Source: Naegleria gruberi
Taxonomy: Eukaryota
Length of the DNA stretch: 64,000 nt
Strand: one strand, 5' to 3'
NCBI GenBank assembly: GCA_000004985.1
Contig: GG738935.1
The first letter of the stretch is position 1; each line of letters starts with the position of its first letter. Under the pieces are notes generated by a model. It worked only from the letters and a program-made list of their open reading frames with translations. It was not told where the DNA came from and ran no database searches. The position numbers and the translations under genes were made by a program. Below, piece after piece: positions 1-20,916 of this stretch.

Positions 1-971
1 TTTACTAAATTATCAACATTTTTATAAAATTCACATGATAAATTATCAATTAATTTTTGACATTCATTATTTATATTTTTATTTTTAATTTTATCATTTA
101 TACAATAATATTGTTTACTTCCTAATATAGTCATTTTAGGTTTATACCCTGTTTTTTTTAATTCTTTAATAATTTGTTTAATTTGTGAATGTGTTCTACA
201 ACAATATATTATTTTAGGTATATTTTCTATTTTTAGTATTTCATTCTCTGCTTTATTAGAATATCCTTTTTGAAAATAATTTAATATTTTACTAATTTTA
301 TTACTATCTATATTTAGATTATTTATATTTGAATTATTTATATTTAAATTTAAATTTGAATTATTTAATGATAAATTTGTATATTTTTGTATAATTTTAG
401 CTTTATAATATTGTTGCCAACATAAAGTAGCACATAATAAACTTAATGTTTTACCAGTTCCCTAATTTATATAAATTAATAATAAATATTAAATATAAAT
501 ATAATTAAATAAATATTAAATAAATATTAAAAAATAAAAATAAAAACATACAGTTGGACTTTCTAAAATAGCATTTGATTTTTCTGTTGAATCCAAAGTA
601 TCAATAATTCTATTCATAAATTCTATTTGTGTATCATATGGTTTATATGGAAATAAACATTCATATGAATTTATTAATTTTACTTTAACTTGTTCTATTG
701 ATGATGATGATTCATTATTACTATTTATATTATTATTTAAATTATTAAATGAAGATGATTGTTTATTTAATGATGATGGAGATGATGAAATTAAAATAGG
801 AGAATGTTTTCTCTTTTTTTTCATGAGAGTAACAAGTGGTGAATCAAAATATTTACTTGCTTCATCGTCGGTATTTTCATCATCATCATCATCGGAAGAT
901 AATGTTTCAGGTGTATAAATAAATCGTTTTTTAGGTTGTTGTTGATTTTGATGATGGTGTGATGATGACAT
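1..971 (-). CDS. Rad3/XPD-family Fe-S DNA helicase (RTEL1/FANCJ/DDX11-like), N-terminal part; the gene continues beyond the window start
   Basis: The minus-strand ORF 516..971 ends in ...FPYKPYDTQIEFMNRIIDTLDSTEKSNAILESPT. It splices (donor GTATGT at 546..551, acceptor TAG at 462..464) to an exon at <1..461 that begins GTGKTLSLLCATLCWQQ (Walker A, motif I). That exon then reads ...KIIYCCRTHSQIKQIIKELKKTGYKPKMTILGSKQYYCIN, which resembles the RTEL1/FANCJ motif Ia region. The exon 2 frame stays open down to position 1. Exons: 552..971 and <1..461; intron 462..551. The ~110-aa acidic N-terminal extension before the FPY motif is not typical for this family. Confidence 0.75.
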
Positions 972-1373
972 TTTTTTAAATTATATTTGAATAAAGTTCT
1001 AATAAAAACAAGATTTAATAATTACTTGATATTTGGGACATGATTTCGAACCTTTTTTAATTGTTGTATGTGACTAAAATTTTCTTTACCAGTTATTCAT
1101 TAAATTAGTGGTATATGATTGAGTGAATTGAAGAAAGAACTGGTGTTTTACATGTTGAATTTGCATTGGTGTGATAATCAAAATTTAGAAAATTGTTAAA
1201 AATATGAAGGAGTGGAATTTTCTAATGATTGTTTTATTAATTTACATAATTTTAATACATACTTAAATGTTATGAATTATGAATCATTACAAAATTTAAA
1301 AATATTAAAATACTTATCAATAGAGCTACTGTTGACGATTTATTGAGCTGGGTGAATCATGTTTATGAGTTGT

Positions 1374-1973
1374 NNNNNNNNNNNNNNNNNNNNNNNNNNN
1401 NNNNNNNNNNNNNNNNNNNNNNNNNNNNNNNNNNNNNNNNNNNNNNNNNNNNNNNNNNNNNNNNNNNNNNNNNNNNNNNNNNNNNNNNNNNNNNNNNNNN
1501 NNNNNNNNNNNNNNNNNNNNNNNNNNNNNNNNNNNNNNNNNNNNNNNNNNNNNNNNNNNNNNNNNNNNNNNNNNNNNNNNNNNNNNNNNNNNNNNNNNNN
1601 NNNNNNNNNNNNNNNNNNNNNNNNNNNNNNNNNNNNNNNNNNNNNNNNNNNNNNNNNNNNNNNNNNNNNNNNNNNNNNNNNNNNNNNNNNNNNNNNNNNN
1701 NNNNNNNNNNNNNNNNNNNNNNNNNNNNNNNNNNNNNNNNNNNNNNNNNNNNNNNNNNNNNNNNNNNNNNNNNNNNNNNNNNNNNNNNNNNNNNNNNNNN
1801 NNNNNNNNNNNNNNNNNNNNNNNNNNNNNNNNNNNNNNNNNNNNNNNNNNNNNNNNNNNNNNNNNNNNNNNNNNNNNNNNNNNNNNNNNNNNNNNNNNNN
1901 NNNNNNNNNNNNNNNNNNNNNNNNNNNNNNNNNNNNNNNNNNNNNNNNNNNNNNNNNNNNNNNNNNNNNNNNN
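1374..1973. other. assembly gap (600 N)
   Basis: Uninterrupted run of n characters. The ORF-track ORFs running through it (1343..1981, 1359..1991) are artefacts of translating N as X. Confidence 1.
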
Positions 1974-3621
1974 GAAAATGAAATGTTCTAATCAATGGCA
2001 AAAAATAATGGTTAACGTATTTGGAATTATAATTCATTGATTCAATAACTATGTCTAAAGATGTTGTGAATTCGTTAGATTTAAAGTAGTACATTATATT
2101 CCCAACAATATTATCATTGATTCCAAGTGTTCTTTCTAAAAAATTCTTTCTGATATCTGTAGTAGCGAAACGTAAAGCTTTGGCATTTTGTAAAACAGCA
2201 CGTTTCACAATTTCAAAGTTGTTCTGGTCTATATGAGAAGCGTATTGAAGTGCTAACCCATTTTTCTTCACGATTTCTATTGTTGGCATGTATTCTTTGA
2301 TTGAATTAGGGATATATTCAAGAGCAAGTGGTTCTGATTCAGTAAATTCTTTCATCAAATCGATATCTCCTCTTATTTGTTCAGGGGCAAACTCTAAAGC
2401 TTTGTAATTATTGATGAAAGCTAACTTGGTCATGATTTTAGTTTTCTCCTCCGTTCTAAAAAACTGATAAATTAGACCATTTCTTTTAAGTGCCTCTCTT
2501 TTGAAATCATTATCATGTTTGGATTTTTCTGAGATGAATTGAAAGTTTCTAAAATCTTGCTCAATAACAGCATATTCAAATAGAGTATTAGAATGGATGA
2601 GTTTGGAGATACCATTGTTTGTGTTGATGTGATCTGACCATTTAATACTGTTACTTAATAATTGAAGCAACCTTTTAATAACCTCATCCAATGACAATCT
2701 CTCTGTTTTTAATTTCAACAAACCCAAAACAATCTCTGCAAATTCCTTTGAAAGATTATATTCTGATGATAATTTTTCAACATCAAAGTCTTGAAAATTA
2801 CATTTACCAGTAATCAATTCAAAGAGTGTTAAACCTATGGAATAGTTATCACTTTCAAATGAATAACCTTCCATAAAAACCTCTGGTGCACAGAGTTTAG
2901 CTCCTATTATTTCAGTTTCCTTTCTAGATGAGAAATTACTTTTTGTGGCACATTCAAAATCAGCCAAAACTATAACAGGGAATTTGTTATCAATAAATTC
3001 ATCTATGAATACATTGGCTGGTCTGATGTCTCTATGAATAATTTCATGGGATTGTATGAAGAATACTGAATTAACTAATTGTAGCATGATTAGCTGTAAT
3101 ATTTTCTCATCATTGAACTTATTTATCCAATGATCAAGTGAACCAAACTTGTAATATTTCATTTTGTAATAATTAAAATTATCATCATTAATTTTAAGAG
3201 TTTCTCCGTAATAAACTTTGACAATATTAGGATGTCTAAATATTGTTCCATCAAATTTCAATAGATATCTTACTTCTCTCATAAAGCTCTTATTGGAAGA
3301 GTTAAATTCTTCCCTATACACTTTCACCACATACTTCTTTACTACTTCAATAATTTTGTAAATATAAACACCTTTCGATTGATCACTGAATAATCTTCTA
3401 CCTAATGTGAATAATTCTGACAATCTTTCTTTGATGATGGTACCAGTGTCGCCATTAATGATTATATTGTGGTTGGTGGTAATAATTGGTGTTGCATTAG
3501 GATTATTAATTATAGTGAGTTTTAATTTGTGTTGATTGTTTGGAGAGACCATCACCACAGTACCGTTAAGTTCAATGCTGATTGTACCATTCAACATGAG
3601 CTCAAGTTGAGTGTCTGTCAT
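1974..3621 (-). CDS. Ser/Thr protein kinase with C-terminal DUF4116-like repeats; 3' end lost in the assembly gap
   Basis: Kinase subdomains are visible: VVKVY (beta3 Lys), HRDIRPANVFID (catalytic loop), LADFECATK (DFG-like motif, here DFE), CAPEVF (APE). Downstream of the kinase domain are repeated units of the form ...ALQYASHIDQNNFEIVKRAVLQNAKALRFATTDIR..., which look like DUF4116-type repeats. The ATG at 3621 sits in an A-rich context. The C-terminus runs into the N gap at 1973. Confidence 0.8.
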
Positions 3622-4729
3622 TTTTTTTTGAATAATAAACGAAACGTGATAATGCCAAGTAGGTGCTCAATGACGTCAGCAATCGTTTCTTCAGTTGACG
3701 AACATTTAATCCCATTCTGTTTAAGAAAACATTCACAATTCAGTAATCGATTAATTTGAAATTATTAGAATTAATATTAGAGAAACATATGATAGAAAGT
3801 TTCCTCCACACAAACTCAATTGCCAACCAGTTAGACATGCACTTTGCTACTCATAAATGCAAAGTATTTGGTGTCACTGATTCTAGTAAAAATCTACTGC
3901 CAAAGTACTCCTTAATAACGTCAAATTAACAACCCGTAATAACCCAGGGTAGATGCACTTTACAGAATTTAGAAACTAAAATTAGTGGAACAACTACAAG
4001 CCATCCAAAGCTATCATCCATCACCATAGATGAAGATTTAATTTTGAAAATACTCTTGCAGAGCAATTAAATTTTCAATTTTCTCCTTCACATTTTAATG
4101 TTTTGATTTTATAATTCACTAAGCATTCAGCATTGACTCAATTTTGAGCCATTATTATTATTATATTGAGGAAAGCATCAATTGAAGGTCTATTGTTAAA
4201 ACTCACTGCATTTTGTTAAAACAGATCTTCTTACCGTGAAATTCATAGAATGTCGAACATCTGATTAATTTTATGCCAACCAAACCAGATTCGTTATTAT
4301 TTTCTATGATGTCTTACTGCGTTAAATTAATAACAATAGTAAGGTCATGTTGACCACGTAATATCACGAACATCAAGGAGGAATGGTGCTAATGTCTCCT
4401 GTAGACATTTCAAGCTGTTTGCAGATTTATTAATTCCACATCTCCCTTAACCAAAAATATTGCTAGAAATATGATGAAACAACCAAACAACGATGCAACA
4501 GATTCATTATGGAAACAACTTTCGGTGTTGTGCCTCCATAGTAACAACTCGTTCTAAACAATGAACGTAAAAAACAAAGTCTACTCTGTTACAATCCTGT
4601 CTTTTAAGAAACTGTTTGGTGAAGTTGAACTACTTGAATCCATCACTTTATCACTTGCAATGGAGCTCCACTGTTGTTATTCCTTAATATTTAGATAGAA
4701 TTGAAAAACTTCCGTGATACTTTAAGAAT

Positions 4730-7201
4730 NNNNNNNNNNNNNNNNNNNNNNNNNNNNNNNNNNNNNNNNNNNNNNNNNNNNNNNNNNNNNNNNNNNNNNN
4801 NNNNNNNNNNNNNNNNNNNNNNNNNNNNNNNNNNNNNNNNNNNNNNNNNNNNNNNNNNNNNNNNNNNNNNNNNNNNNNNNNNNNNNNNNNNNNNNNNNNN
4901 NNNNNNNNNNNNNNNNNNNNNNNNNNNNNNNNNNNNNNNNNNNNNNNNNNNNNNNNNNNNNNNNNNNNNNNNNNNNNNNNNNNNNNNNNNNNNNNNNNNN
5001 NNNNNNNNNNNNNNNNNNNNNNNNNNNNNNNNNNNNNNNNNNNNNNNNNNNNNNNNNNNNNNNNNNNNNNNNNNNNNNNNNNNNNNNNNNNNNNNNNNNN
5101 NNNNNNNNNNNNNNNNNNNNNNNNNNNNNNNNNNNNNNNNNNNNNNNNNNNNNNNNNNNNNNNNNNNNNNNNNNNNNNNNNNNNNNNNNNNNNNNNNNNN
5201 NNNNNNNNNNNNNNNNNNNNNNNNNNNNNNNNNNNNNNNNNNNNNNNNNNNNNNNNNNNNNNNNNNNNNNNNNNNNNNNNNNNNNNNNNNNNNNNNNNNN
5301 NNNNNNNNNNNNNNNNNNNNNNNNNNNNNNNNNNNNNNNNNNNNNNNNNNNNNNNNNNNNNNNNNNNNNNNNNNNNNNNNNNNNNNNNNNNNNNNNNNNN
5401 NNNNNNNNNNNNNNNNNNNNNNNNNNNNNNNNNNNNNNNNNNNNNNNNNNNNNNNNNNNNNNNNNNNNNNNNNNNNNNNNNNNNNNNNNNNNNNNNNNNN
5501 NNNNNNNNNNNNNNNNNNNNNNNNNNNNNNNNNNNNNNNNNNNNNNNNNNNNNNNNNNNNNNNNNNNNNNNNNNNNNNNNNNNNNNNNNNNNNNNNNNNN
5601 NNNNNNNNNNNNNNNNNNNNNNNNNNNNNNNNNNNNNNNNNNNNNNNNNNNNNNNNNNNNNNNNNNNNNNNNNNNNNNNNNNNNNNNNNNNNNNNNNNNN
5701 NNNNNNNNNNNNNNNNNNNNNNNNNNNNNNNNNNNNNNNNNNNNNNNNNNNNNNNNNNNNNNNNNNNNNNNNNNNNNNNNNNNNNNNNNNNNNNNNNNNN
5801 NNNNNNNNNNNNNNNNNNNNNNNNNNNNNNNNNNNNNNNNNNNNNNNNNNNNNNNNNNNNNNNNNNNNNNNNNNNNNNNNNNNNNNNNNNNNNNNNNNNN
5901 NNNNNNNNNNNNNNNNNNNNNNNNNNNNNNNNNNNNNNNNNNNNNNNNNNNNNNNNNNNNNNNNNNNNNNNNNNNNNNNNNNNNNNNNNNNNNNNNNNNN
6001 NNNNNNNNNNNNNNNNNNNNNNNNNNNNNNNNNNNNNNNNNNNNNNNNNNNNNNNNNNNNNNNNNNNNNNNNNNNNNNNNNNNNNNNNNNNNNNNNNNNN
6101 NNNNNNNNNNNNNNNNNNNNNNNNNNNNNNNNNNNNNNNNNNNNNNNNNNNNNNNNNNNNNNNNNNNNNNNNNNNNNNNNNNNNNNNNNNNNNNNNNNNN
6201 NNNNNNNNNNNNNNNNNNNNNNNNNNNNNNNNNNNNNNNNNNNNNNNNNNNNNNNNNNNNNNNNNNNNNNNNNNNNNNNNNNNNNNNNNNNNNNNNNNNN
6301 NNNNNNNNNNNNNNNNNNNNNNNNNNNNNNNNNNNNNNNNNNNNNNNNNNNNNNNNNNNNNNNNNNNNNNNNNNNNNNNNNNNNNNNNNNNNNNNNNNNN
6401 NNNNNNNNNNNNNNNNNNNNNNNNNNNNNNNNNNNNNNNNNNNNNNNNNNNNNNNNNNNNNNNNNNNNNNNNNNNNNNNNNNNNNNNNNNNNNNNNNNNN
6501 NNNNNNNNNNNNNNNNNNNNNNNNNNNNNNNNNNNNNNNNNNNNNNNNNNNNNNNNNNNNNNNNNNNNNNNNNNNNNNNNNNNNNNNNNNNNNNNNNNNN
6601 NNNNNNNNNNNNNNNNNNNNNNNNNNNNNNNNNNNNNNNNNNNNNNNNNNNNNNNNNNNNNNNNNNNNNNNNNNNNNNNNNNNNNNNNNNNNNNNNNNNN
6701 NNNNNNNNNNNNNNNNNNNNNNNNNNNNNNNNNNNNNNNNNNNNNNNNNNNNNNNNNNNNNNNNNNNNNNNNNNNNNNNNNNNNNNNNNNNNNNNNNNNN
6801 NNNNNNNNNNNNNNNNNNNNNNNNNNNNNNNNNNNNNNNNNNNNNNNNNNNNNNNNNNNNNNNNNNNNNNNNNNNNNNNNNNNNNNNNNNNNNNNNNNNN
6901 NNNNNNNNNNNNNNNNNNNNNNNNNNNNNNNNNNNNNNNNNNNNNNNNNNNNNNNNNNNNNNNNNNNNNNNNNNNNNNNNNNNNNNNNNNNNNNNNNNNN
7001 NNNNNNNNNNNNNNNNNNNNNNNNNNNNNNNNNNNNNNNNNNNNNNNNNNNNNNNNNNNNNNNNNNNNNNNNNNNNNNNNNNNNNNNNNNNNNNNNNNNN
7101 NNNNNNNNNNNNNNNNNNNNNNNNNNNNNNNNNNNNNNNNNNNNNNNNNNNNNNNNNNNNNNNNNNNNNNNNNNNNNNNNNNNNNNNNNNNNNNNNNNNN
7201 N
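4730..7201. other. assembly gap (2472 N)
   Basis: Uninterrupted run of n. The ORF-track entry 4701..7217 is an artefact. Confidence 1.
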
Positions 7202-7214
7202 ATTAGCTGTCCTC

Positions 7215-7340
7215 TAATGTTTATATATGTTTTTATATATATGTGTTTTTATATTTTATATTTTATATATTTTATATTTATATATATTTTATATATTTTA
7301 TATTAAATATATTAAATATATTATTTATATTAGTAATGAT
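7215..7340. repeat. AT-rich microsatellite-like simple repeat (tatatattttata-type units) directly after the gap
   Basis: Sequence 7215..7340 consists of reiterated tatata / tattttata / atatatttta units. It probably belongs to the intron or 3' flank of the truncated esterase gene. Confidence 0.7.
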
Positions 7341-7559
7341 ATGTAATAAAGATGATGATTTGAGGTGGGTAGTTATGTATGGACCATTTTAATATATATA
7401 TTTGTGTGGTGATAAGATGGAGGAGGTCAATACATAAATTATTTAGTAAAATGTAACAAGTATTTTGTTGTTGGTTGTTGTGATGGTGGTGGTAGGATAG
7501 AGAGATTGTGTTAATATAAAGTATTATGTTAAATAACAATAAAAAAAAACAAATGAAAC

Positions 7560-8219
7560 CTACTGATCGAAATGACCACCTGGGAAAAAGACCATTACTG
7601 GTTTTAAATTATTACTACTATTAGTAGTAGTAGTACTAATATTAAAAGGAGTGAAAATATTTAAAGATAAACAATCTTCACTTTGATTTTGAGCACATAA
7701 ACCATGTGGAAGTAAACAATTTTGAGGACACATTGGACCAAATTGAGTAGTATCTAATATATCTACAAATGGTAATGGTTGTGGTTGTGGATCTGACCAA
7801 CGTAATTCACCAATTGGTGCTTTAGCATATGGTATAGTTTTAAATGATTTATAATTATCAATGAATGATTGTACACCTCTCAATGTACCTAATCCATTCA
7901 CATTGAATAGAAATGTTTGTTCATTAACATTAACATTAGCATTACTATTAGCATCATTACTATGTTGTTGTTGTTCATTATGTTGTTGTTGATGATTAGA
8001 TTGTTTTAAAGATTTAATATTTGATAATTTTAATTGATGAATTAAATTATTAATTTTATCATTTGATGATTCAATTGTTGTTGTTGTTATTGTAGTTTTA
8101 ATAGATGCAGCATTAATAATACATGATAATGATACTACTACTATTAATAATAATAATAGAATGAATAACAATGAATTTGATTGTTTAATCATGATCATGA
8201 TTATTTCAACCTGTGACAA
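7560..8219 (-). CDS. Type-B carboxylesterase/lipase family protein, N-terminal exon (signal peptide plus start of esterase domain); the rest of the gene lies in the gap
   Basis: The ORF has a predicted signal peptide (LLFILLLLLIVVVSLSCIINAAS). It carries the esterase N-terminal motifs ...IPYAKAPIGELRWSDPQP...FGPMCPQ...SEDCLSLNIFTP...KPVMVFFPGGHF, which correspond to the EDCLYLNV and VMVWIHGGGF regions. The reading frame ends at 7560, where a GTAGGT sits as a likely donor (CA|GTAGGT). The continuation would lie inside the 4730..7201 gap. Confidence 0.6.
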   Translation of the reverse strand: MSQVEIIMIMIKQSNSLLFILLLLLIVVVSLSCIINAASIKTTITTTTIESSNDKINNLIHQLKLSNIKSLKQSNHQQQHNEQQQHSNDANSNANVNVNEQTFLFNVNGLGTLRGVQSFIDNYKSFKTIPYAKAPIGELRWSDPQPQPLPFVDILDTTQFGPMCPQNCLLPHGLCAQNQSEDCLSLNIFTPFNISTTTTNSSNNLKPVMVFFPGGHFDQ

Positions 8220-8576
8220 GTAATTAGTTTTTTTTAAAGATGATTAGAATCAAAGGTCATTTCACTAACCATCGTCTATTCAATTGGATAATATTTAATG
8301 TGATGCTTGAATGCAATTTGATAACAACAATAACTCCTGTAAACACAAAGTGTTGTTACTCCTCAACGGAATGAACATGATGAACAGCTCAAAATATTTT
8401 AGAAAATATCTAATTGAACCTTCCAAAATATATTTATTTGTACAATATAATAATAATGGATCTATTGTTTACAATAATTTACAAATTTATTTATAATCAT
8501 ATTACAATAATTTCTATATTCAAAAATAATAAATAATAATAATACAATTTGAATTTAATACACTATTTAATAATAA

Positions 8577-9539
8577 TTACTTTTTCTTTTTATCATTATT
8601 ATTATTACTATTACTATTAATATTAGTATTATTATTATTATCTAAATGATTTAAATTATTATTATTAATAATATTATTTAATTGTCTATGTAAAGATAAT
8701 TGTATAGCTCTATCTAAAATATCTTTAACACCAACATTTTGATCATAAATAGAACATTCATTATAAAACATGATTGGATATTGTTGATCATGATTATATA
8801 AATCCATTAATTTTTTAACTTGAACTCTATCAATTAATAAACCTGATGAAATATATCTGTGATCGTCACGTAAATCAGTCTTTGTTGCACATAGAATAAT
8901 TAATGCATTTGGACATAACATTCTAATTTCAGGTATCCATTTCAATTTTACACTTTCATATTGTTGTTTACTAACAATTGAATAACATATTATAAATACA
9001 TTAGTATTAGGATATGTTAATTTGGTACGATATCTATCATAATCATCACTTCCTTTACTATCACATATTGTTAATGTTAATTCTTTACCTTGATACATTG
9101 CTATTATTATTATATTATTATATTATATTATATTTAATTATTATGATATTATTTGATTGATTGGTGATTGATGTAAAATAATATTATTGTCAATAGGATA
9201 TCATCATTATCATCATCATAATATTAAATTATTATATATCATTAAATTATTATAATATTATGTTATATTATTAAAATACAAACTTTTTAAATTAAATTCA
9301 TCTAAAGTAGTATGTGGTAAATCTCTATCATCTTCTTTAAAAGATAAAGCAAGTGATGTTTTACCTGATGTAGAATTACCAACAATACATAATTTAATTG
9401 AATGTTGTTGTTGTTGATTCATATTTGTTGATGATGATTTTCTAAAACTTTGACTAGTTGATGAAGTTGATTCTTCAGTTCTTTTTTCCCATGCTGCTAA
9501 AAGACCTCCAACTTTACCACTCGTATTATGTCTTTGCAT
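8577..9539 (-). CDS. Atypical Rho/Rac-like small GTPase (two exons)
   Basis: Exon 1 (9285..9539) encodes the P-loop KLCIVGNSTSGKTSLALSF and the switch I-like segment HTTLDEFNLK. It splices (donor GTTTGT at 9279..9284, acceptor TAG at 9101..9103, phase 1) to exon 2 (8577..9100), which reads TMYQGKELTLTICDSKGSDDYDRYRTKLTYPNTNVFIICYSI...LCATKTDLRDD...ECSIY. The spacing of the G1-G5 motifs is Rho-like. The G3 motif is DSKGSD rather than DTAGQE. The C-terminus is N-rich and polybasic and has no CAAX box. Confidence 0.7.
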
Positions 9540-9977
9540 TTTTTTATTGACATTTGATTGTTTATATGATTATTTGGATGTCAATGGCGATTTGAATTTC
9601 ATAAATCTTCAGTAAATTGGCCTTTTCATTTGAATTTAAATTGTTAATTTCATTATATTCAATGACAGAAGAATATTCAGATTTCATTTTAATGTATTCA
9701 TTAATTTTGATTTAATTTCAAAAGAATTTACAATTTTAAATGTGTTTGTTGGTTGTAATTCATTGCTCAGAGAGAAGCTGCAGAGAAAAAGTTCATATTG
9801 TCTCTCCAGAAAAACAAGTTCATCCTCAATAACATCAACCCCCACTACCGTAATATATTTTTTAAAAAAAAAACTCCAATCCTCTTATTGATTGCCTCAC
9901 CTTACTTTTATTTTCATCAGCAAACAAAGGCTTTAAATATCTGTCTTTCAATTTATTATATAATTTAAAATATTAAA

Positions 9978-11297
9978 ATGGTAACACATCCAACATCAAG
10001 TATTACATTTAATTCATTTAATCAACCTCCATTTCAAGTCTATCCATATTTTGGAGAGTATATTGTATTATTATTAGATGAAGCTAATCATCAATTAGCC
10101 TTAACAGATTTAAATTCCATTGATTTAATAGTATCAATATATGATAAATGTTTTGAATTTTATCAATCATGTTTTGAAAATGGTGATAAACCTTCAAATA
10201 CATCCTATATGATGGAAGGTAGAGTAACAGTATGTGTTGTTTCAAATGGAGCAGGTGGATTAGGTATTGTAGGTGGATTTGGAGTTGAAATTGGACCTGC
10301 CTTTTTTGAAACAACATTTAAAAATGTTAAATATGGTTTAAATGAAAACTTTTATCATGTTTTATTTTATGAATTTGGTAGAAATTGGTGGTTAACAAGT
10401 AATTCATTAACATGTCAAGAAACTAAATGTAATAGTAGTTTTATTGATGGTTATGCTATTTTTATGCAAATATGGGCAATGAAATATTGTAATATTAGTG
10501 GCGGTTTTTATTCAGGTCAACCATTTTCAGTTCATAATTTAAAAATATTACAACATGTTACAAATTATGAATTAAATAATCAAGCTAATTGGGAAAATAC
10601 TTTACAATTAAAAAGAGGTGCTGATTTTGCTGAACATTATGGATGTGAATTATGGGCTGGTTTTATGCATTACATGTCAATTAGATTTGGTGGTTTATCT
10701 TTTGTTCAAAGAATATTTAAAATTGCAAAGAAATTAACACAACAACCTTTAAATCCACAACAAGTTTTAGATAATTGGTTCATTTCATGTTCAAAAGCAG
10801 CACAAAAGAATTTAACACTTCTATTTACTAAAAGATGGAGAATGAATGTTTCACATTCTGCTATTGAACAAATTCAACAAGAATTTAGAATTTCATATGA
10901 ATATGATCAAATTGAAAAATCATCAAATCCACATTCTCAAATTTCAATTACTAATCAACATGTTTCATCAATGAATGAATCAAATATTCCTTTTAATATT
11001 GAATTTAAAGAATATGATGCTAATTGTATTTTAATTGGATTAAATTTATGGACTGGTCATATTATTGATTCAATTCAACCTATTTATGGTAAAATTAATC
11101 AAGAGAATGGTCAATTAGAATATGTTAGAGAAGGTGAAAAGTATGGTACATGTGGTGGTAAATTAGAAAGAATGGAATTTAAAGGTTATATTCCAACTGC
11201 AATTCATTATGAAAATGGATATTGGTATGGTAATAAGTTATTATGTAGAATTGGAATTGAATTTCAAGAATGGAATTCAATAATTAAGACCATGTAG
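9978..11297 (+). CDS. Hypothetical protein with C-terminal jacalin-type lectin domain; the reading frame probably continues to 11513 after a +1 shift (frameshift or sequencing error)
   Basis: 439-aa ORF. The C-terminal region ...IGLNLWTGHIIDSIQPIYGKINQENGQLEYVREGEKYGTCGGKLERMEFKGYIPTAIHYENGYWYGNKLLCRIGIEF fits the jacalin beta-prism pattern (IDSIQ, GT.GG, F.G). A degenerate HExxH-like segment YEFGRNWW sits in the central part. Immediately after the stop, the +1 frame encodes a second jacalin-like unit (SSGGDSFIKFYWGLGSDETK...EVFVGFAGEIELFHSNDWFY*) that ends at 11513. Confidence 0.6.
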   Translation: MVTHPTSSITFNSFNQPPFQVYPYFGEYIVLLLDEANHQLALTDLNSIDLIVSIYDKCFEFYQSCFENGDKPSNTSYMMEGRVTVCVVSNGAGGLGIVGGFGVEIGPAFFETTFKNVKYGLNENFYHVLFYEFGRNWWLTSNSLTCQETKCNSSFIDGYAIFMQIWAMKYCNISGGFYSGQPFSVHNLKILQHVTNYELNNQANWENTLQLKRGADFAEHYGCELWAGFMHYMSIRFGGLSFVQRIFKIAKKLTQQPLNPQQVLDNWFISCSKAAQKNLTLLFTKRWRMNVSHSAIEQIQQEFRISYEYDQIEKSSNPHSQISITNQHVSSMNESNIPFNIEFKEYDANCILIGLNLWTGHIIDSIQPIYGKINQENGQLEYVREGEKYGTCGGKLERMEFKGYIPTAIHYENGYWYGNKLLCRIGIEFQEWNSIIKTM

Positions 11298-11535
11298 TAG
11301 TGGTGGTGATTCATTCATTAAATTTTATTGGGGATTAGGTTCAGATGAAACTAAAAAGGTAATTGACACTTCAACTGATACAGAAGATATTATGGCTGAA
11401 AAATTACAACCTGCAATGACAAGTGTCAGATTAAATTTAAATAATAAGGAAGTTTTTGTTGGTTTTGCAGGTGAAATTGAATTATTTCATTCCAATGATT
11501 GGTTCTATTAGAAAGTAATTTAAAAATTATAAAAA

Positions 11536-11775
11536 TTAAAATTCTTCTTCTTCAGTTGAATAATTATCCTCTTGTAACTTTTCCAAATTAGTTTTACCAT
11601 TATTAAAATAAATATCATCTTCTCTATTCATTTCATCATTCTGTTCATCTTCATCATCATCACTATTAAAATTTTCATCTCTTCCCTTTTTAAAATTATT
11701 TAAAGATGGAGCATTGGATTGATTTGTATAACCAAAACAAAAAGATTGAAATCCACCTACTCCATTTAGTAACAT
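11536..11775 (-). CDS. Small acidic protein, copy 1 (hypothetical)
   Basis: 79-aa ORF MLLNGVGGFQSFCFGYTNQSNAPSLNNFKKGR...acidic D/E-rich...NNGKTNLEKLQEDNYSTEEEEF. The frame is open a further 13 codons upstream (GWFHSDIFEKSQ), so there may be an upstream exon. Its paralogue is at 12489..12743. Confidence 0.4.
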   Translation of the reverse strand: MLLNGVGGFQSFCFGYTNQSNAPSLNNFKKGRDENFNSDDDEDEQNDEMNREDDIYFNNGKTNLEKLQEDNYSTEEEEF

Positions 11776-11990
11776 TTGAGATTTTTCAAATATATCTGAA
11801 TGAAACCATCCTCTTTTAAGGCCTTATTTTTTTAAATTTATATTTTTAGAATTTGAAATATTTTTTAATAATTCTTTCTAAATTTATATTTTAAATTTTT
11901 CCCACACCAATTTAGTGACTGTTTTCTATTATGTTATTAAAATATTAACAATTTTGAATATAATTTATTGTAAATTTCCATAATTAGAAA

Positions 11991-12402
11991 TTAAAAAGCA
12001 ATAAAACTAATAATTAAAATCAAAAATAAACCACCAAAACCACCACCACTCATCAATGTATTAGCACTATTAAAAGTAGGATCACCCATCACATTAACAT
12101 TCAATCTAGATTCTAAAAATTTACCACTCTGTACATATTTAGCTAACAATGTAACAGTTTGATTTTGTTTTGATTTTATAATAGCACCACTAAAATCACC
12201 AATTCCACCCTCAGAAAAATACGATCTACCACTATCAATATTATATAAAACAAGTGGTGAAATTCCATTTTCAATTCTCAATGAAACACTTGCTTTGGTG
12301 GAGAGTGTTGAATTTTGTGAATCTCTTAAATAGGTTTTAAAATTAATTAAATCACCACTATTAATTATACTCTTATCAGATGTTAATAATATATTATTAA
12401 CT
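11991..12402 (-). CDS. Secreted cysteine-rich GPI-anchored-type protein, copy 1 (5' part lost in gap)
   Basis: The C-terminal 137 codons are about 98% identical to the protein at 13546..14415. They end in SGGGFGGLFLILIISFIAF*, a small-residue omega region followed by a hydrophobic tail, which suggests a GPI anchor signal. The frame is open up to the N gap at 12403. Confidence 0.55.
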
Positions 12403-12452
12403 NNNNNNNNNNNNNNNNNNNNNNNNNNNNNNNNNNNNNNNNNNNNNNNNNN
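12403..12452. other. assembly gap (50 N) inside the tandem duplication
   Basis: Run of n. The flanks are repeat copies, so this is probably a collapsed or unresolved repeat. Confidence 1.
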
Positions 12453-12488
12453 AATGATTGGTTCTATTAGAAAGTAATTTAAAAATTA

Positions 12489-12743
12489 TTAAAATTCTTC
12501 TTCTTCAGTTGAATAATTATCCTCTTGTAACTTTTCCAAATTAGTTTTACCATTATTAAAACAAATATCATCTTCACTATCACTAACATCATTCATTTCA
12601 TCATTTTGTTCATAATCATCCAGTTCATCACTAATAAAATTTTCAATTCTTCCCTTTTTAAAATTATTTAAAGATGGAGCATTGGATTGATTTGTATAAC
12701 CAAAACAAAAAGATTGAAATCCACCTACTCCATTTAGTAACAT
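12489..12743 (-). CDS. Small acidic protein, copy 2 (hypothetical)
   Basis: 84-aa paralogue of 11536..11775. The N-terminal 32 and C-terminal 25 residues are identical. The central acidic segment has diverged (DENFNSDDDEDEQNDEMNREDD vs IENFISDELDDYEQNDEMNDVSDSEDD). Confidence 0.4.
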   Translation of the reverse strand: MLLNGVGGFQSFCFGYTNQSNAPSLNNFKKGRIENFISDELDDYEQNDEMNDVSDSEDDICFNNGKTNLEKLQEDNYSTEEEEF

Positions 12744-13545
12744 TTGAGATTTTTCAAATATATCTGAATGAAACCATCCTCTTTCAATACCTTTTTAAAT
12801 TTATATTTTTAGAATTTGAAATATTTTTTAATAATTCTCTTCTTTCTAAATTTGTGTAAAAATATCAAAATAATATTAATGAATGTATATTTTCCATAGA
12901 TGGTAAGTAATAAGTACTTATAGAAGAAGTAGTATATGATATTAAATGTGTTGGTTTGTTTAAATTATGAATTTTACTTTTTAATTTTTCATTTGTTTGA
13001 AAATTCCAAATACTAATTCTACCAATATGTTTTTTATCATTTAAAATATTTTCAATTTCATTTATAATTAAATAATTTTTTAAATTTTTTAAAAAGATAA
13101 AAAAATAAAATCTTGTGGATTTTCTGCAATTTCATTAAATTTAAATTCAATTGATTGTTCATTATGAACTGGTTCTAAAAATAATCTAAAATTCTTTTTT
13201 TGTAATTTTGGTAATTTTGAATCTTGAATAAAATCCAGCAATGAACACAATAAACAAGTGTTTTTTTTACTTGATGCTTTTATTACATGGTAATAGATAG
13301 TACTATTTGTGTATTCTTTGAAATACTGAAATAAAACCCATTGTCATCGATCATTTATTAAACTTTCATTCTTTTTGAAATCAAACATTGATCATCTGAC
13401 TAAGGTGATTGTATGATTTCTCCTCTATGATCAACTCCCCATCATTTAGTGAACATTTTCTATTAATTATGTCATTAAAAATATTTAATAATTATGATAT
13501 AAACAATTTTGAATATATTTTATTGTAAATTTCCATAATTAGAAA

Positions 13546-14415
13546 TTAAAAAGCAATAAAACTAATAATTAAAATCAAAAATAAACAACCAAAACCACCA
13601 CCACTCATCAATGTATTAGCACTATTAAAAGTAGGATCACCCATCACATTAACATTCAATCTAGATTCTAAAAATTTACCACTCTGTACATATTTAGCTA
13701 ACAATGTAACAGTTTGATTTTGTTTTGATTTTATCATAGCACCACTAAAATCACCAATTCCACCCTCAGAAAAATACGATCTTCCACTATCAATATTATA
13801 TAAAACAAGTGGTGAAATTCCATTTTCAATTCTCAATGAAACACTTGCTTTGGTGGAGAGTGTTGAATTTTGTGAATCTCGTAAATAGGTTTTAAAATTA
13901 ATTAAATCACCACTATTAATTATACTCTTATCAGATGTTAATAATAAATTATTAACTGTAATGGTCTTATCAGTACAATATGACATGGTGTCAAATTGAG
14001 ATGAAGTACAACTAAAACCATTACTATCACAAGTAAAATAGGTTATATATCTATTAATAGAAGTATCTGTCATGAATGAAGAACCTTGATAACATGAAAC
14101 TGAACCAGATGATGATAAACCACTCAAACCACTACCACCTGTATTACTATTATCACTGTATGGCATTGTTTTAACTGTAATTTTATCAGATGAAGATTTC
14201 AATTGAACTGAAATGTAACTAACATAGGTATTTGGTGCATAATCACAATAAGCAGTTGCTACATTATATTGATTTGGTTTAATATTACAAGTAAATCCAC
14301 CACAATTACAATATTCACATTTACATTCATTACTATCACATTTAATGAAATTAATTAACAAGAATACAAATAGAGTTAATAGTGTTGATGTGATCCAATG
14401 TTTGTTGTTGAACAT
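13546..14415 (-). CDS. Secreted cysteine-rich GPI-anchored-type protein, copy 2
   Basis: Probable start at MFNNKHWITSTLLTLFVFLLINFIKC (signal peptide; ATG at 14413..14415 in an aaaaaaaaATG context). The ORF-track start at 14514 is 33 codons further upstream. The mature protein is Cys-rich (CKCEYCNCGGFTCN...) with many S/T/N. The C-terminus is SGGGFGCLFLILIISFIAF*. Confidence 0.6.
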   Translation of the reverse strand: MFNNKHWITSTLLTLFVFLLINFIKCDSNECKCEYCNCGGFTCNIKPNQYNVATAYCDYAPNTYVSYISVQLKSSSDKITVKTMPYSDNSNTGGSGLSGLSSSGSVSCYQGSSFMTDTSINRYITYFTCDSNGFSCTSSQFDTMSYCTDKTITVNNLLLTSDKSIINSGDLINFKTYLRDSQNSTLSTKASVSLRIENGISPLVLYNIDSGRSYFSEGGIGDFSGAMIKSKQNQTVTLLAKYVQSGKFLESRLNVNVMGDPTFNSANTLMSGGGFGCLFLILIISFIAF

Positions 14416-14746
14416 TTTTTTTTTGTTGTTGAAGAAATTAAAATCTCTCTTCAGTTTCGAATATTTGAGCAAGTTGTTGAACTTCAGTTCAGTGAAGATG
14501 ACTGTTGATTTCATTTTGTTTTCATGTGGTGACCTTAGCGTATCATGGAAATAACCTACTTGCCTTTATTGGAAACAAACTTCAGTTGAAATATTTCATT
14601 TACAATACATTACAGCTCTAATTATTGTATTGAAAGAAATTTACACTTTACAAATGTTGTTTCATGATAAATTTCAATTATGAACTTGAAGGTTAAATTT
14701 CATCATTCTTTTCATTTCATTTATTTAAAAATAGATTTAAAAAAAA

Positions 14747-15682
14747 ATGTTCAATTCCCTTCCTTCAAAATTACAATCACACATTTTTCAAGATAAAATC
14801 AGAGCTCTATCCAATATAATAGTACCATCCTATTCAAATGAACATGTGATTGGAATTGGTGATTTAAATTTAGAATTATTTAATTTGGAAAGGAATGAAT
14901 TTATTAAATATAAAGAATCAGATAAATTAAATAATTTAAATATAGGATCAATATATTCATTACAATATAATAATTTAAATAATACATTATTAATAGGTAG
15001 ACATGATGGTTCTATTCAAATATTTGATTTAACAAATTTAAAATATTTAAATACATTTAAAAATCATTGTAATACTGTTAAATGTTTTACAATGAATATT
15101 GAAAATGAACATTTATTTTATAGTGGATCATATGATGGAACTATACAATTATGGGATGATAGAAAATTACAATCTTCATTGAAAACAAGTATAAAACATT
15201 CTGGATATGTAAATTCTTTATGTTTTTACAATAATCAAATTTATTCAACTTCCATAGATGGAATTTCTATTTTTGATTCAAATAATTTAAAATTAATTTC
15301 AAAATCAAAACAAAAAAGTGAAATTTTATCTTCATGTCATTTATCAACAGGTGAAAATTCATCACATTTATATTTTTCATCCAAAGATGGAAGTGTTAAA
15401 ATATTTGACATGAATTGTAATCAAGTCATTTTCACATTAAATGAAATTGATCAAATTTCAATGAATGCAATGGATTGTAATTTGAATAGATTATATTCAT
15501 GTAATAATCAAGGTCAAGTTAAAGAATTTGATTTGGAAAATTTATATGAAATTCAAACATTTGAAACCAAATCAATGAATGATTTAAAAAATATGGATAG
15601 TTCAATACGTTCATGTTTACTGTGTGAAAATTTACTTTTATTAGGAATTCAATCTAGAAAGATAAAGGTATTACTTTTATAG
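14747..15682 (+). CDS. WD40-repeat protein
   Basis: 311-aa ORF with WD-repeat signatures (GRHDGSIQIFD, GSYDGTIQLWDD, SSKDGSVKIFD). Single exon, aaaaaaaATG start context. Confidence 0.7.
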   Translation: MFNSLPSKLQSHIFQDKIRALSNIIVPSYSNEHVIGIGDLNLELFNLERNEFIKYKESDKLNNLNIGSIYSLQYNNLNNTLLIGRHDGSIQIFDLTNLKYLNTFKNHCNTVKCFTMNIENEHLFYSGSYDGTIQLWDDRKLQSSLKTSIKHSGYVNSLCFYNNQIYSTSIDGISIFDSNNLKLISKSKQKSEILSSCHLSTGENSSHLYFSSKDGSVKIFDMNCNQVIFTLNEIDQISMNAMDCNLNRLYSCNNQGQVKEFDLENLYEIQTFETKSMNDLKNMDSSIRSCLLCENLLLLGIQSRKIKVLLL

Positions 15683-19502: not shown

Positions 19503-20916
19503 ATGTCTGCCAAGGCAAAGTAAGTTGAAGATGATTCTGTTTTACTAGTAGTAGTAACCGACGTTTATTATAGAAAACCTTTCAAATCAAAATCATCAAC
19601 CACTTCTTCTATCTTCTCATCATCTAATAACAACAACAAAATCGTAAATGTTATTGCAACTCCGATAGTAGTCAATCAACAACCTTCTAAAAATTCAATT
19701 AGTAAAAACAATCCTGTAGATAAATATTTAACAACTCTGGGAATTGAGGATAGACCTAATGATTTAACAGAATTTTGTAATAAATTATTTAAAAAGTGTA
19801 GCACTGATAGAGACAAACAATTCGTGGAAAATTATTTAAGTGCTTTATTAAAGAAACATATTGGTTCTGATTCATTATTTACAAACGATTGGGAAAACAT
19901 ACCATTGCCAGAGTAAGTATATTGTAAATGATTAATTCTAATTTCAAATTTAAAGTCTACCTTCATCATGGGAAACTACTAGTAATGCTTTAAAAATTCA
20001 AGATAATAATGAATCATCATCGAGTCTACCAAAGATACCAAAGTTAGCTAAAAAGAGAACTAGTGAAGAAATATCAAATAATAGTAATGTTCTATCTAAA
20101 CCACTATCACTAATTCTTGANNNNNNNNNNNNNNNNNNNNNNNNNNNNNNNNNNNNNNNNNNNNNNNNNNACATCTAATGTATTGAATCCTGAAGATTTA
20201 GACCATACCATATTCTTATTCAATCTCTAACTTTTGTAGTCTCCAAATATGAAAAAGGAGAGGCAAACTATGAAGATTATTTATGTGAACAATTGAAGGC
20301 CATTAGACAAGATTTAATAGTACAAGGTATTGAAAATGAATTTTCTGTAACTGTTTATGAAACTCATGCAAGATTCGCTTTGCAAAATAGAGATATTAGT
20401 GAATTTAATCAATGTCAAACAAGGTTAAGAGACTTGTATAGTAAGAACTTGAAAGGAAATCAAGCAGAATTCTTGATGTATACAATTCTATATTTGACTT
20501 TGAATAATTCAACAAGTGAACTTGCAAAAGTTTTGAAAACAATCACGATACCGAAATCAAACGACTATGTGAAATATGCCTTGGAATTTAATTCTGACTT
20601 TTCTTTTTTTAATTTTAACAAAATATTTAACACTTTATATCATCAAGCTCCTGCTTTGGGTAAGTCATTAATAGATATTTTTGCAGAAGGTATGAGAAAG
20701 AAGGCAATTAGAATAATGTGTCAATCGCACTCTCCAACAACATTAGAAGTTAATTTTGTGTTGAAATGTATTGGATTACCAAATTTGATGAGGAAGGAAA
20801 AGAACAACTTTTTAAACAAGATGGGAATTCAATTGAGTTCAGATAACAATAATTTAATTGATTGTAAGAGTACAATGCAAAAATATTTGGAAGAGGAGAA
20901 TAAATCATCTGTTTAA
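19503..20916 (+). CDS. LENG8-like SAC3/GANP (PCI) domain protein; multi-exon, interrupted by an assembly gap
   Basis: Exon 4 encodes ...EQLKAIRQDLIVQGIENEFSVTVYETHARFALQNRDISEFNQCQTRLRDLYSKNLKGNQAEFLMYTILY..., which matches the LENG8/SAC3D1 core of the SAC3/GANP domain. Model: 19503..19519 (MSAKAK, GTAAGT donor), 19574..19912, 19956..>20120 (into the gap), then <20240..20916 after the intron acceptor TTTTGTAG. Confidence 0.75.
20121..20170. other. assembly gap (50 N) inside the LENG8-like gene
   Basis: Run of n. Confidence 1.

Follow-up and report, generated by a model that had tools for sequence, protein, structure and literature searches.

In a draft scaffold of Naegleria gruberi, the stretch of 64 kb analysed here (the window) contains a repeat whose copies flank an assembly gap in head-to-tail order. 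We conclude that this layout probably reflects two allelic versions of one locus that were left unmerged across the gap, rather than a true duplication. The repeat is real in the draft scaffold but probably ordinary. Based on blastn and global alignment, the copies span positions 11494-12402 and 12453-13957, and the gap between them comprises positions 12403-12452. The features of the region are as follows:

9978..11297, plus strand: upstream gene NAEGRDRAFT_76103 (XP_002668940.1, 439 aa, named 'predicted protein'; identical to an entry of the protein collection)
11284..11511, plus strand: extension of the upstream gene in the +1 frame, 75 codons that end in NDWFY, stop codon TAG at 11509-11511 (translation and tblastn of the merged protein)
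11494..12402, no strand: copy A, the final 909 bases of the left contig (blastn and global alignment)
11536..11775, minus strand: acidic ORF of copy A, 79 aa from the ATG, frame open for 95 codons from 11823 (ORF list)
11991..12402, minus strand: Cys-rich 3' fragment of copy A, the final 136 codons and the stop, cut by the gap (tblastn, 97.8% identity, residues 154-289)
12403..12452, no strand: assembly gap, exactly 50 N (gap list)
12453..13957, no strand: copy B, the initial 1505 bases of the right contig (blastn and global alignment)
12489..12743, minus strand: acidic ORF of copy B, 84 aa from the ATG, frame open for 100 codons from 12791 (ORF list)
12857..13434, minus strand: X segment, about 580 bases, in copy B only (global alignment and translation)
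13546..14415, minus strand: complete Cys-rich GPI-like gene of copy B, NAEGRDRAFT_76104 (XP_002668958.1, 289 aa; 100% match)

The copies align in two blocks. Block 1 (11494-11885 against 12453-12853) contains the acidic ORF and is 89.6% identical over 412 columns, while block 2 (11936-12402 against 13491-13957) covers the 3' part of the Cys-rich gene and is 98.07% identical over 467 nt. Between the two ORFs, global alignment revealed the roughly 580 bases of copy B (~12857-13434) that are absent from copy A; outside this large indel about 94% of the aligned columns are identical. The alignment reaches both the last base before the Ns (12402) and the first base after them (12453), leaving 0 bp unaligned at either edge, and the outermost differences between the copies are found 10 nt short of the end of contig 1 and 35 nt into contig 2. 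Since this pair is the sole repeat of at least 100 bp in the entire 64-kb window, a chance origin is excluded, and it is located exactly on the contig junction. Neither tRNA genes nor Rfam families were detected in 9000-15500. An earlier sequence-only reading of this DNA had described two near-identical head-to-tail units at the 50-N gap, each with a Cys-rich gene. The repeat is indeed present in the assembly and the gene of copy B is complete, but in copy A the gene is truncated by the gap and retains no more than its 3' 136 codons, and copy B carries the additional ~580 bases.

The explanation we prefer assumes a locus that is single-copy per haplotype and would comprise, in this order, the upstream gene (plus strand), the acidic ORF (minus strand), the X segment (present or absent), the Cys-rich GPI-like gene (minus strand) and a WD40 gene (plus strand). 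The two haplotypes of a heterozygous strain would differ in the 580-bp indel, in several smaller indels and in an acidic core that is hypervariable, and such differences would have caused the Sanger assembler to build separate contigs: the one through haplotype 1 would have ended at 12402 and the one through haplotype 2 would have begun at 12453. Their overlap of 909/1505 bases would then have been left unmerged by the assembler, and the scaffolder would have set both contigs end to end with a minimum gap of 50 N. Several observations point to this scenario. The end of the left contig aligns to the beginning of the right one exactly at the gap edges, and edge differences that begin 10 and 35 nt inside the contigs are what one would see had identical sequence outside the bubble been collapsed. 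In addition, searches of the protein database yielded no further N. gruberi copy of the two annotated genes, and P0001 and P0002 each form a one-member cluster, which also argues against a true duplication. Naegleria is furthermore described as mainly heterozygous diploid (PMC9928731). However, the divergence (~94% identity outside the large indel, with clustered changes in the acidic core) is high for alleles, and the dovetail pattern is equally expected from a true tandem duplication with an internal gap. Taken together, we infer from the layout, the identities and the absence of further copies that the two versions are probably alleles.

In a genuine tandem segmental duplication, there would be two copies of a unit that comprises the acidic ORF, the Cys-rich gene and the upstream gene, the latter in full or with its 3' part. 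The 5' half of the first Cys-rich copy, its promoter and a second piece of the upstream gene would be concealed by the gap, and the copies would have diverged later through the 580-bp indel and changes in the acidic core. We regard this scenario as possible, if on the unlikely side. It is consistent with both ORFs being open in both copies, with acidic-ORF indels that are multiples of 3, and with a degree of divergence (2-10% and a large indel) that is high for alleles. Moreover, near-identical repeats commonly cause contig breaks, and a gap inside a tandem pair also yields the dovetail. However, the size of the gap speaks against it. A full second unit needs the 5' half of the Cys-rich gene (460 bp or more) as well as the promoter and part of the upstream gene, so that at least 0.5-2.3 kb would need hiding. 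Of the five gaps in the window, three are exactly 50 N long and two measure 600 and 2472, and from this we infer that the gaps are sized and that 50 N looks like a floor or placeholder value. As a floor value, 50 N leaves no room for the 460 bp or more that a second full copy requires. A genuine duplication also requires flanks identical enough to collapse around a centre that is 2-10% diverged, and the sequence shows neither a second complete unit nor the junction between units, as the Cys-rich gene of copy A stops at codon 154 at the gap. The earlier suggestion that further copies might be hidden in the gap is the part of that reading with the least support.

Neither of the other two 50-N gaps of the window shows duplicated flanks, which counts against the allelic reading and led us to reject an artefact systematic to 50-N gaps. 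One of them (20121-20170) interrupts a LENG8/THP3-type gene, which by our estimate lacks at least ~10-15 codons there, and this is compatible with a short real gap. A search of the available literature returned nothing on the gap convention of the assembler or on heterozygosity values of strain NEG-M.

If the gap at 12403-12452 were real and very short, a true partial tandem duplication with its junction exactly at the gap and almost nothing hidden would fit both the 50 N and the visible sequence. The unit would be the visible 909/1505-bp segment, the Cys-rich piece of copy A would be a genuine 3' fragment joined to the final 18 nt of the upstream gene, and ...TATTAACT would adjoin AATGATTGG... 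directly or within a few bases. However, a junction of this kind would have been bridged by reads and the contigs merged, and a gap placed precisely on both breakpoints would be an unexplained coincidence. We thus consider this scenario very improbable.

Sequence divergence between the copies bears on the origin of the repeat as well. The acidic ORF of copy A encodes 22 D+E against 9 K+R, and its 95-codon open stretch is attained in 0.95% of shuffles. The description of both ORFs as sharing their termini around a diverged core is accurate: in the global alignment they differ by in-frame indels of 12 and 3 nt and by substitutions clustered in the acidic core, where 8-9 substitutions and the two indels fall within about 60 nt. 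From this divergence, the sequence-only reading deduced that the copies are real paralogues and no assembly artefact. Yet divergence of this kind excludes only an artefact of the same reads (homotype), and the paralogue inference does not follow. It is compatible with two haplotypes left as overlapping contigs, which most often underlie gap-flanking duplicates when a heterozygous diploid is assembled from Sanger reads. That a single haplotype was assembled twice through read errors is scarcely credible: although contig ends in this assembly bear apparent single-base errors, such as a 1-nt frameshift ~30 nt inside the contig beginning at 20171, the 580-bp indel, the in-frame 12- and 3-nt indels and the clustered substitutions that keep the ORF open go beyond sequencing error.

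The acidic ORFs are not annotated and the exact ORFs are absent from the protein collection; a search of 5.8 billion proteins with the acidic ORF and the X segment as one concatenated query gave no homologs at E≤0.1. Within the X segment, a minus-strand ORF (~12868-13379) looks decayed, with one frameshift and one in-frame stop, and its longest open stretch of 88 codons is attained in 1% of shuffles. That the X segment might be a repeat or a mobile element was rejected, as the window contains no other copy and the segment no notable tandem or inverted structure. Splicing of the X ORF to the acidic ORF was rejected as well, since inspection by eye revealed no GT...AG pair that keeps the frame.

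Published base rates favour mis-assembly over genuine duplication. Among gap-flanking overlapping contig pairs, 5,698 of 5,947 in chicken, 13,159 of 13,571 in chimpanzee and 1,094 of 1,366 in cow were attributed to haplotype mis-assembly (PMC2864568). Overall, 80-97% of duplicated overlapping contigs were mis-assemblies, with a median identity of 98.1%, few above 99.5% and most shorter than 2 kb, although these rates stem from vertebrate genomes and from other assemblers, namely Celera Assembler, Arachne or PCAP (PMC2864568). A gap between duplicates has likewise been named a hallmark of false duplication, and the term 'heterotype false duplication' is in use (Ko et al., 2022, PMC9516828).

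The sequence-only reading had further counted the 3' tail of the upstream gene among the repeated elements. This holds for only 18 nt (NDWFY and the stop), which lie in the +1-frame extension and thus outside the public annotation, where NAEGRDRAFT_76103 ends at 11297. The continuation implies a frameshift between 11284 and 11297, and an open stretch of 70 codons is attained in 2.4% of shuffles. Homologs of NAEGRDRAFT_76103, all unnamed metagenomic proteins of ~330 aa (P0004-P0006), cover only its N-terminal ~57-59%. The label 'jacalin-domain gene' gained no support from Pfam or the PDB. With the whole protein as query, Pfam returned no family at E≤1, and with the C-terminal 181 aa none at E≤10; the jacalin-like lectin domain (PF01419) was not found at E≤10, and the PDB offered no sequence match beyond unrelated entries at E of about 1.

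The description of the second gene as encoding a secreted Cys-rich protein of GPI type agrees with our hydropathy analysis and inspection. The protein shows an N-terminal hydrophobic signal at residues 7-25 (hydrophobic window 7-27), 11 Cys within residues 26-147 and a hydrophobic tail at 275-289 (window 269-289), FGCLFLILIISFIAF, which ends at the C-terminus and is preceded by NSANTLMSGGG. Judged by its sequence, it would thus match the GPI-anchored pattern of signal peptide, short polar spacer, small residues (omega site) and hydrophobic C-terminal tail, and we refer to it as GPI-like. The residue pairs GAIIKSKQ/GAMIKSKQ and GGGFGG/GGGFGC had been reported correctly; the copies differ in 5 of 137 codons, 3 of these differences being nonsynonymous and 2 synonymous. 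A word-indexed search recovered only the protein itself and Pfam gave noise only. Exhaustive HMMER searching added one weak bacterial match (P0003, E=2.7e-4) to residues 160-212, which are repeated 10 times in a LapA/Calx-beta protein, so that the E-value is inflated by the 10 repeats. By these searches, NAEGRDRAFT_76104 is an orphan. A single-sequence AlphaFold2 model reached a pLDDT of 41.6 and is unusable.

If the overlap is allelic, the consequence is chiefly a curation note, which would call for collapsing 11494-12402 and 12453-13957, closing the gap and entering the region as a heterozygous structural variant (580-bp indel plus variable acidic core). If the duplication were real, the locus might, although we consider this unlikely, be a tandem array of recent origin built from a lineage-specific cassette, consisting of an orphan Cys-rich GPI-anchored surface protein and a small acidic protein with a hypervariable core. 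Its units would gain and lose a 580-bp gene remnant, more of them may be collapsed in the gap, and a fast-evolving surface-protein locus would result. Such a duplication would be small and young, would concern two orphan genes and would be of local interest only. We suggest screening gap-flanking repeats first whenever gene-family expansions or tandem duplicates are counted in the N. gruberi draft.

Compared with known systems, the gene product resembles GPI-anchored Cys-rich surface proteins in its signal-like N-terminal helix, Cys-rich ectodomain, beta-rich C-terminal half and hydrophobic tail after small residues. It differs from them in that NAEGRDRAFT_76104 belongs to no sequence family, its only remote match being a 52-residue stretch similar to a repeat in a bacterial LapA/Calx-beta adhesin. 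Young tandem duplications of lineage-specific protist surface-protein genes share with our locus the head-to-tail arrangement of a secreted Cys-rich GPI-like orphan and an excess of amino-acid over silent changes (3 against 2), whereas here a single complete copy is found, the junction is unsequenced and neither the window nor the databases hold family members. With respect to duplicated overlapping contigs (Kelley and Salzberg, 2010, PMC2864568), our locus is more diverged than usual in one block (89.6% identity) and in the 580-bp indel. The shared features are neighbouring contigs of a single scaffold that are parted by a gap, an alignment that runs through to both contig ends, whereas haplotype false duplications require one to within ~10 bp, a short overlap (<2 kb), a high yet imperfect identity that in one block equals the published median (98.1%), and an organism reported to be a heterozygous diploid.

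The repeat described by the sequence-only reading is real in the assembly. Based on blastn and global alignment, 11494-11885 pairs with 12453-12853 (89.6% identity, 412 columns) and 11936-12402 with 13491-13957 (98.07% identity, 467 nt), while self-comparison of the whole 64-kb window revealed no other repeats of at least 100 bp. The proposed two-gene unit holds in part: both copies carry the small acidic ORF, whereas the Cys-rich gene NAEGRDRAFT_76104 is represented in copy A (11494-12402) by its last 136 codons only, since the contig ends there. The 3' tail of the upstream gene NAEGRDRAFT_76103 is indeed repeated, but comprises only 18 nt (NDWFY plus TAG). Approximately 580 bases of copy B (12453-13957), at about 12857-13434, are absent from copy A in the global alignment. 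The acidic ORFs are:

11536-11775, minus strand: acidic ORF of copy A, unannotated
12489-12743, minus strand: acidic ORF of copy B, unannotated

From this arrangement, the duplicate is probably an allelic overlap artefact, i.e., one locus in two haplotypes, distinguished by an indel of 580 bp and by a hypervariable acidic core. The two haplotypes would have been left as overlapping contigs on either side of the gap 12403-12452. The last matched base, 12402, is the end of the left contig and the first, 12453, is the start of the right one; a match right up to both gap edges is exactly the geometry of overlapping haplotype contigs. A partial duplication whose junction happens to coincide with the gap is very unlikely. 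Measured from the gap-side contig ends, the outermost differences are at 10 and 35 nt, as expected if sequence outside a polymorphic 'bubble' was identical and collapsed. However, a true tandem pair enclosing the gap should give the same dovetail pattern, which counts against the artefact. Such a tandem duplication with hidden sequence is a possible, though clearly less probable, explanation: a full second unit would require 460 bp or more from the 5' half of the Cys-rich gene, the promoter and part of the upstream gene, while the gap comprises 50 N. In addition, no second N. gruberi copy of either NAEGRDRAFT_76103 or NAEGRDRAFT_76104 was found in the protein collection, where both form one-member clusters, and this was counted towards the artefact.

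The size of the gap deserves attention as well. The window contains five N runs (600, 2472, 50, 50 and 50 bases) and is therefore a gapped draft scaffold, presumably from JGI's Sanger assembly of the NEG-M strain. Since 50 N is the exact length of three gaps out of five, gaps appear to be sized, with 50 as a floor or placeholder, which points towards the artefact; against it, this meaning was inferred from the window rather than from assembly documentation, and neither of the other two 50-N gaps in the window is flanked by a duplication. At one of these (20121-20170), a LENG8/THP3-type gene is broken and resumes close to where the solved LENG8 domain starts; from the domain alignment, an estimated 10-15 or more codons are missing, compatible with a short real gap. 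Within about 45 bases after this gap (20171-20215), the SAC3_GANP gene shows an apparent 1-nt deletion (TSNVLNPEDL in one frame, RPYHILIQSL... in the next), suggesting low sequence quality at contig ends of this assembly. Once frame-corrected, it aligns with human LENG8 (E=5e-38), the match beginning at residue 23 of the solved construct. Window positions 1-9200 are unusually poor: two large gaps lie at 1374-1973 and 4730-7201, AT-rich low-complexity stretches are long (TAT/TTA-type repeats, 8582-8678 and 9102-9250), and GC content is 10-14% in gap-containing bins, where Ns were probably counted in the denominator.

Alignment confirmed the identical termini and diverged core of the acidic ORFs: the cores differ by 8-9 substitutions plus two indels (12 and 3 nt) that keep the frame. 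This divergence had been taken as proof of real paralogues, yet all it rules out is that the same sequence was used twice. An error-driven artefact within a single haplotype is hardly credible. Nevertheless, divergence between the copies exceeds that of typical alleles, which speaks against the allelic artefact. Evidence that the acidic ORF is coding is modest: an open stretch of 95-100 codons was equalled in fewer than 1% of shuffles, and indels inside it are in frame, while those outside measure 6, 5, 5 and 21 nt. Protein searches found neither homologs nor an annotation in the protein collection. The segment restricted to copy B holds a decayed-looking minus-strand frame of 170 codons (12868-13379), interrupted by one stop and one frameshift near an A/T run at about 13090. 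No homologs were found in the protein search; this frame could be an orphan gene in decay or a gene that escaped annotation and contains consensus errors.

At 13546-14415 on the minus strand, the full Cys-rich ORF matches with 100% identity the N. gruberi 'predicted protein' XP_002668958.1 (NAEGRDRAFT_76104), placed on the same 87,372-base record as NAEGRDRAFT_76103. Among 137 shared codons the copies differ at five (I157L, I227M, G277C and two silent), and the amino acid differences quoted before were correct. Inspection also supports a putative secreted, GPI-type protein: a hydrophobic N-terminal signal (residues 7-25), 11 cysteines within residues 26-147 and a hydrophobic tail up to the last residue, preceded by NSANTLMSGGG. 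By homology searches the protein is an orphan. Nothing besides itself was found among 5.8 billion proteins, and exhaustive HMMER against 1.84 billion cluster representatives returned itself and one weak match (residues 160-212, E=2.7e-4) to a repeat that occurs ten times in a bacterial LapA/Calx-beta protein. The single-sequence AlphaFold2 model was unusable (pLDDT 41.6). Divergent from this gene, and sharing a 330-bp intergenic region with it, lies a WD40 beta-propeller gene (14747-15682, plus strand; 311-aa ORF, many WD40 Pfam matches). The exact ORF is absent from the protein collection; the public gene model probably differs, e.g., by an intron.

The upstream ORF (9978-11297, plus strand) corresponds to XP_002668940.1 (NAEGRDRAFT_76103). 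Its former label 'jacalin' found no support, as neither a Pfam family at E≤10 nor related PDB sequences were detected. Relatives exist for the N-terminal 57-59% only: its first 300 or so residues (9978-10900) are 28-30% identical to P0004-P0006, unnamed proteins (about 330 aa) assembled from metagenomes and read archives, which carry no Pfam domain or name. This region is an uncharacterised domain that also occurs beyond Naegleria. Past the annotated stop at 11297, 75 more codons are open in the +1 frame up to 11511. This continuation (11284-11511), omitted from public annotation, is the source of the repeated 18-nt tail. It implies that the frame shifts somewhere within 11284-11297, through a consensus error or because the gene is really truncated, and the public model, at 439 aa, may lack about 70 residues. 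Just upstream of the locus lies a short ORF (9258-9539, minus strand) that starts like a P-loop GTPase, with LCIVGNSTSGKTSL, and weakly matches Roc/Ras/Arf in Pfam (E=6e-4); it looks like exon 1 of a small GTPase gene.

Under either reading the finding is ordinary: an issue of draft-assembly curation, or else no more than a small and young duplication that involves two orphan genes. Naegleria has been described as, for the most part, a heterozygous diploid (PMC9928731), and a gap between duplicates was described as a hallmark of false duplication by Ko et al. (PMC9516828). Mate pairs identified mis-assembled haplotypes in 5,698 of 5,947 overlapping contig pairs of this layout in chicken, 13,159 of 13,571 in chimpanzee and 1,094 of 1,366 in cow (PMC2864568). 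The layout at 12403-12452 matches what Kelley and Salzberg named 'duplicated overlapping contigs'; among their mis-assembled pairs, median identity was 98.1% and most were shorter than 2 kb (PMC2864568).
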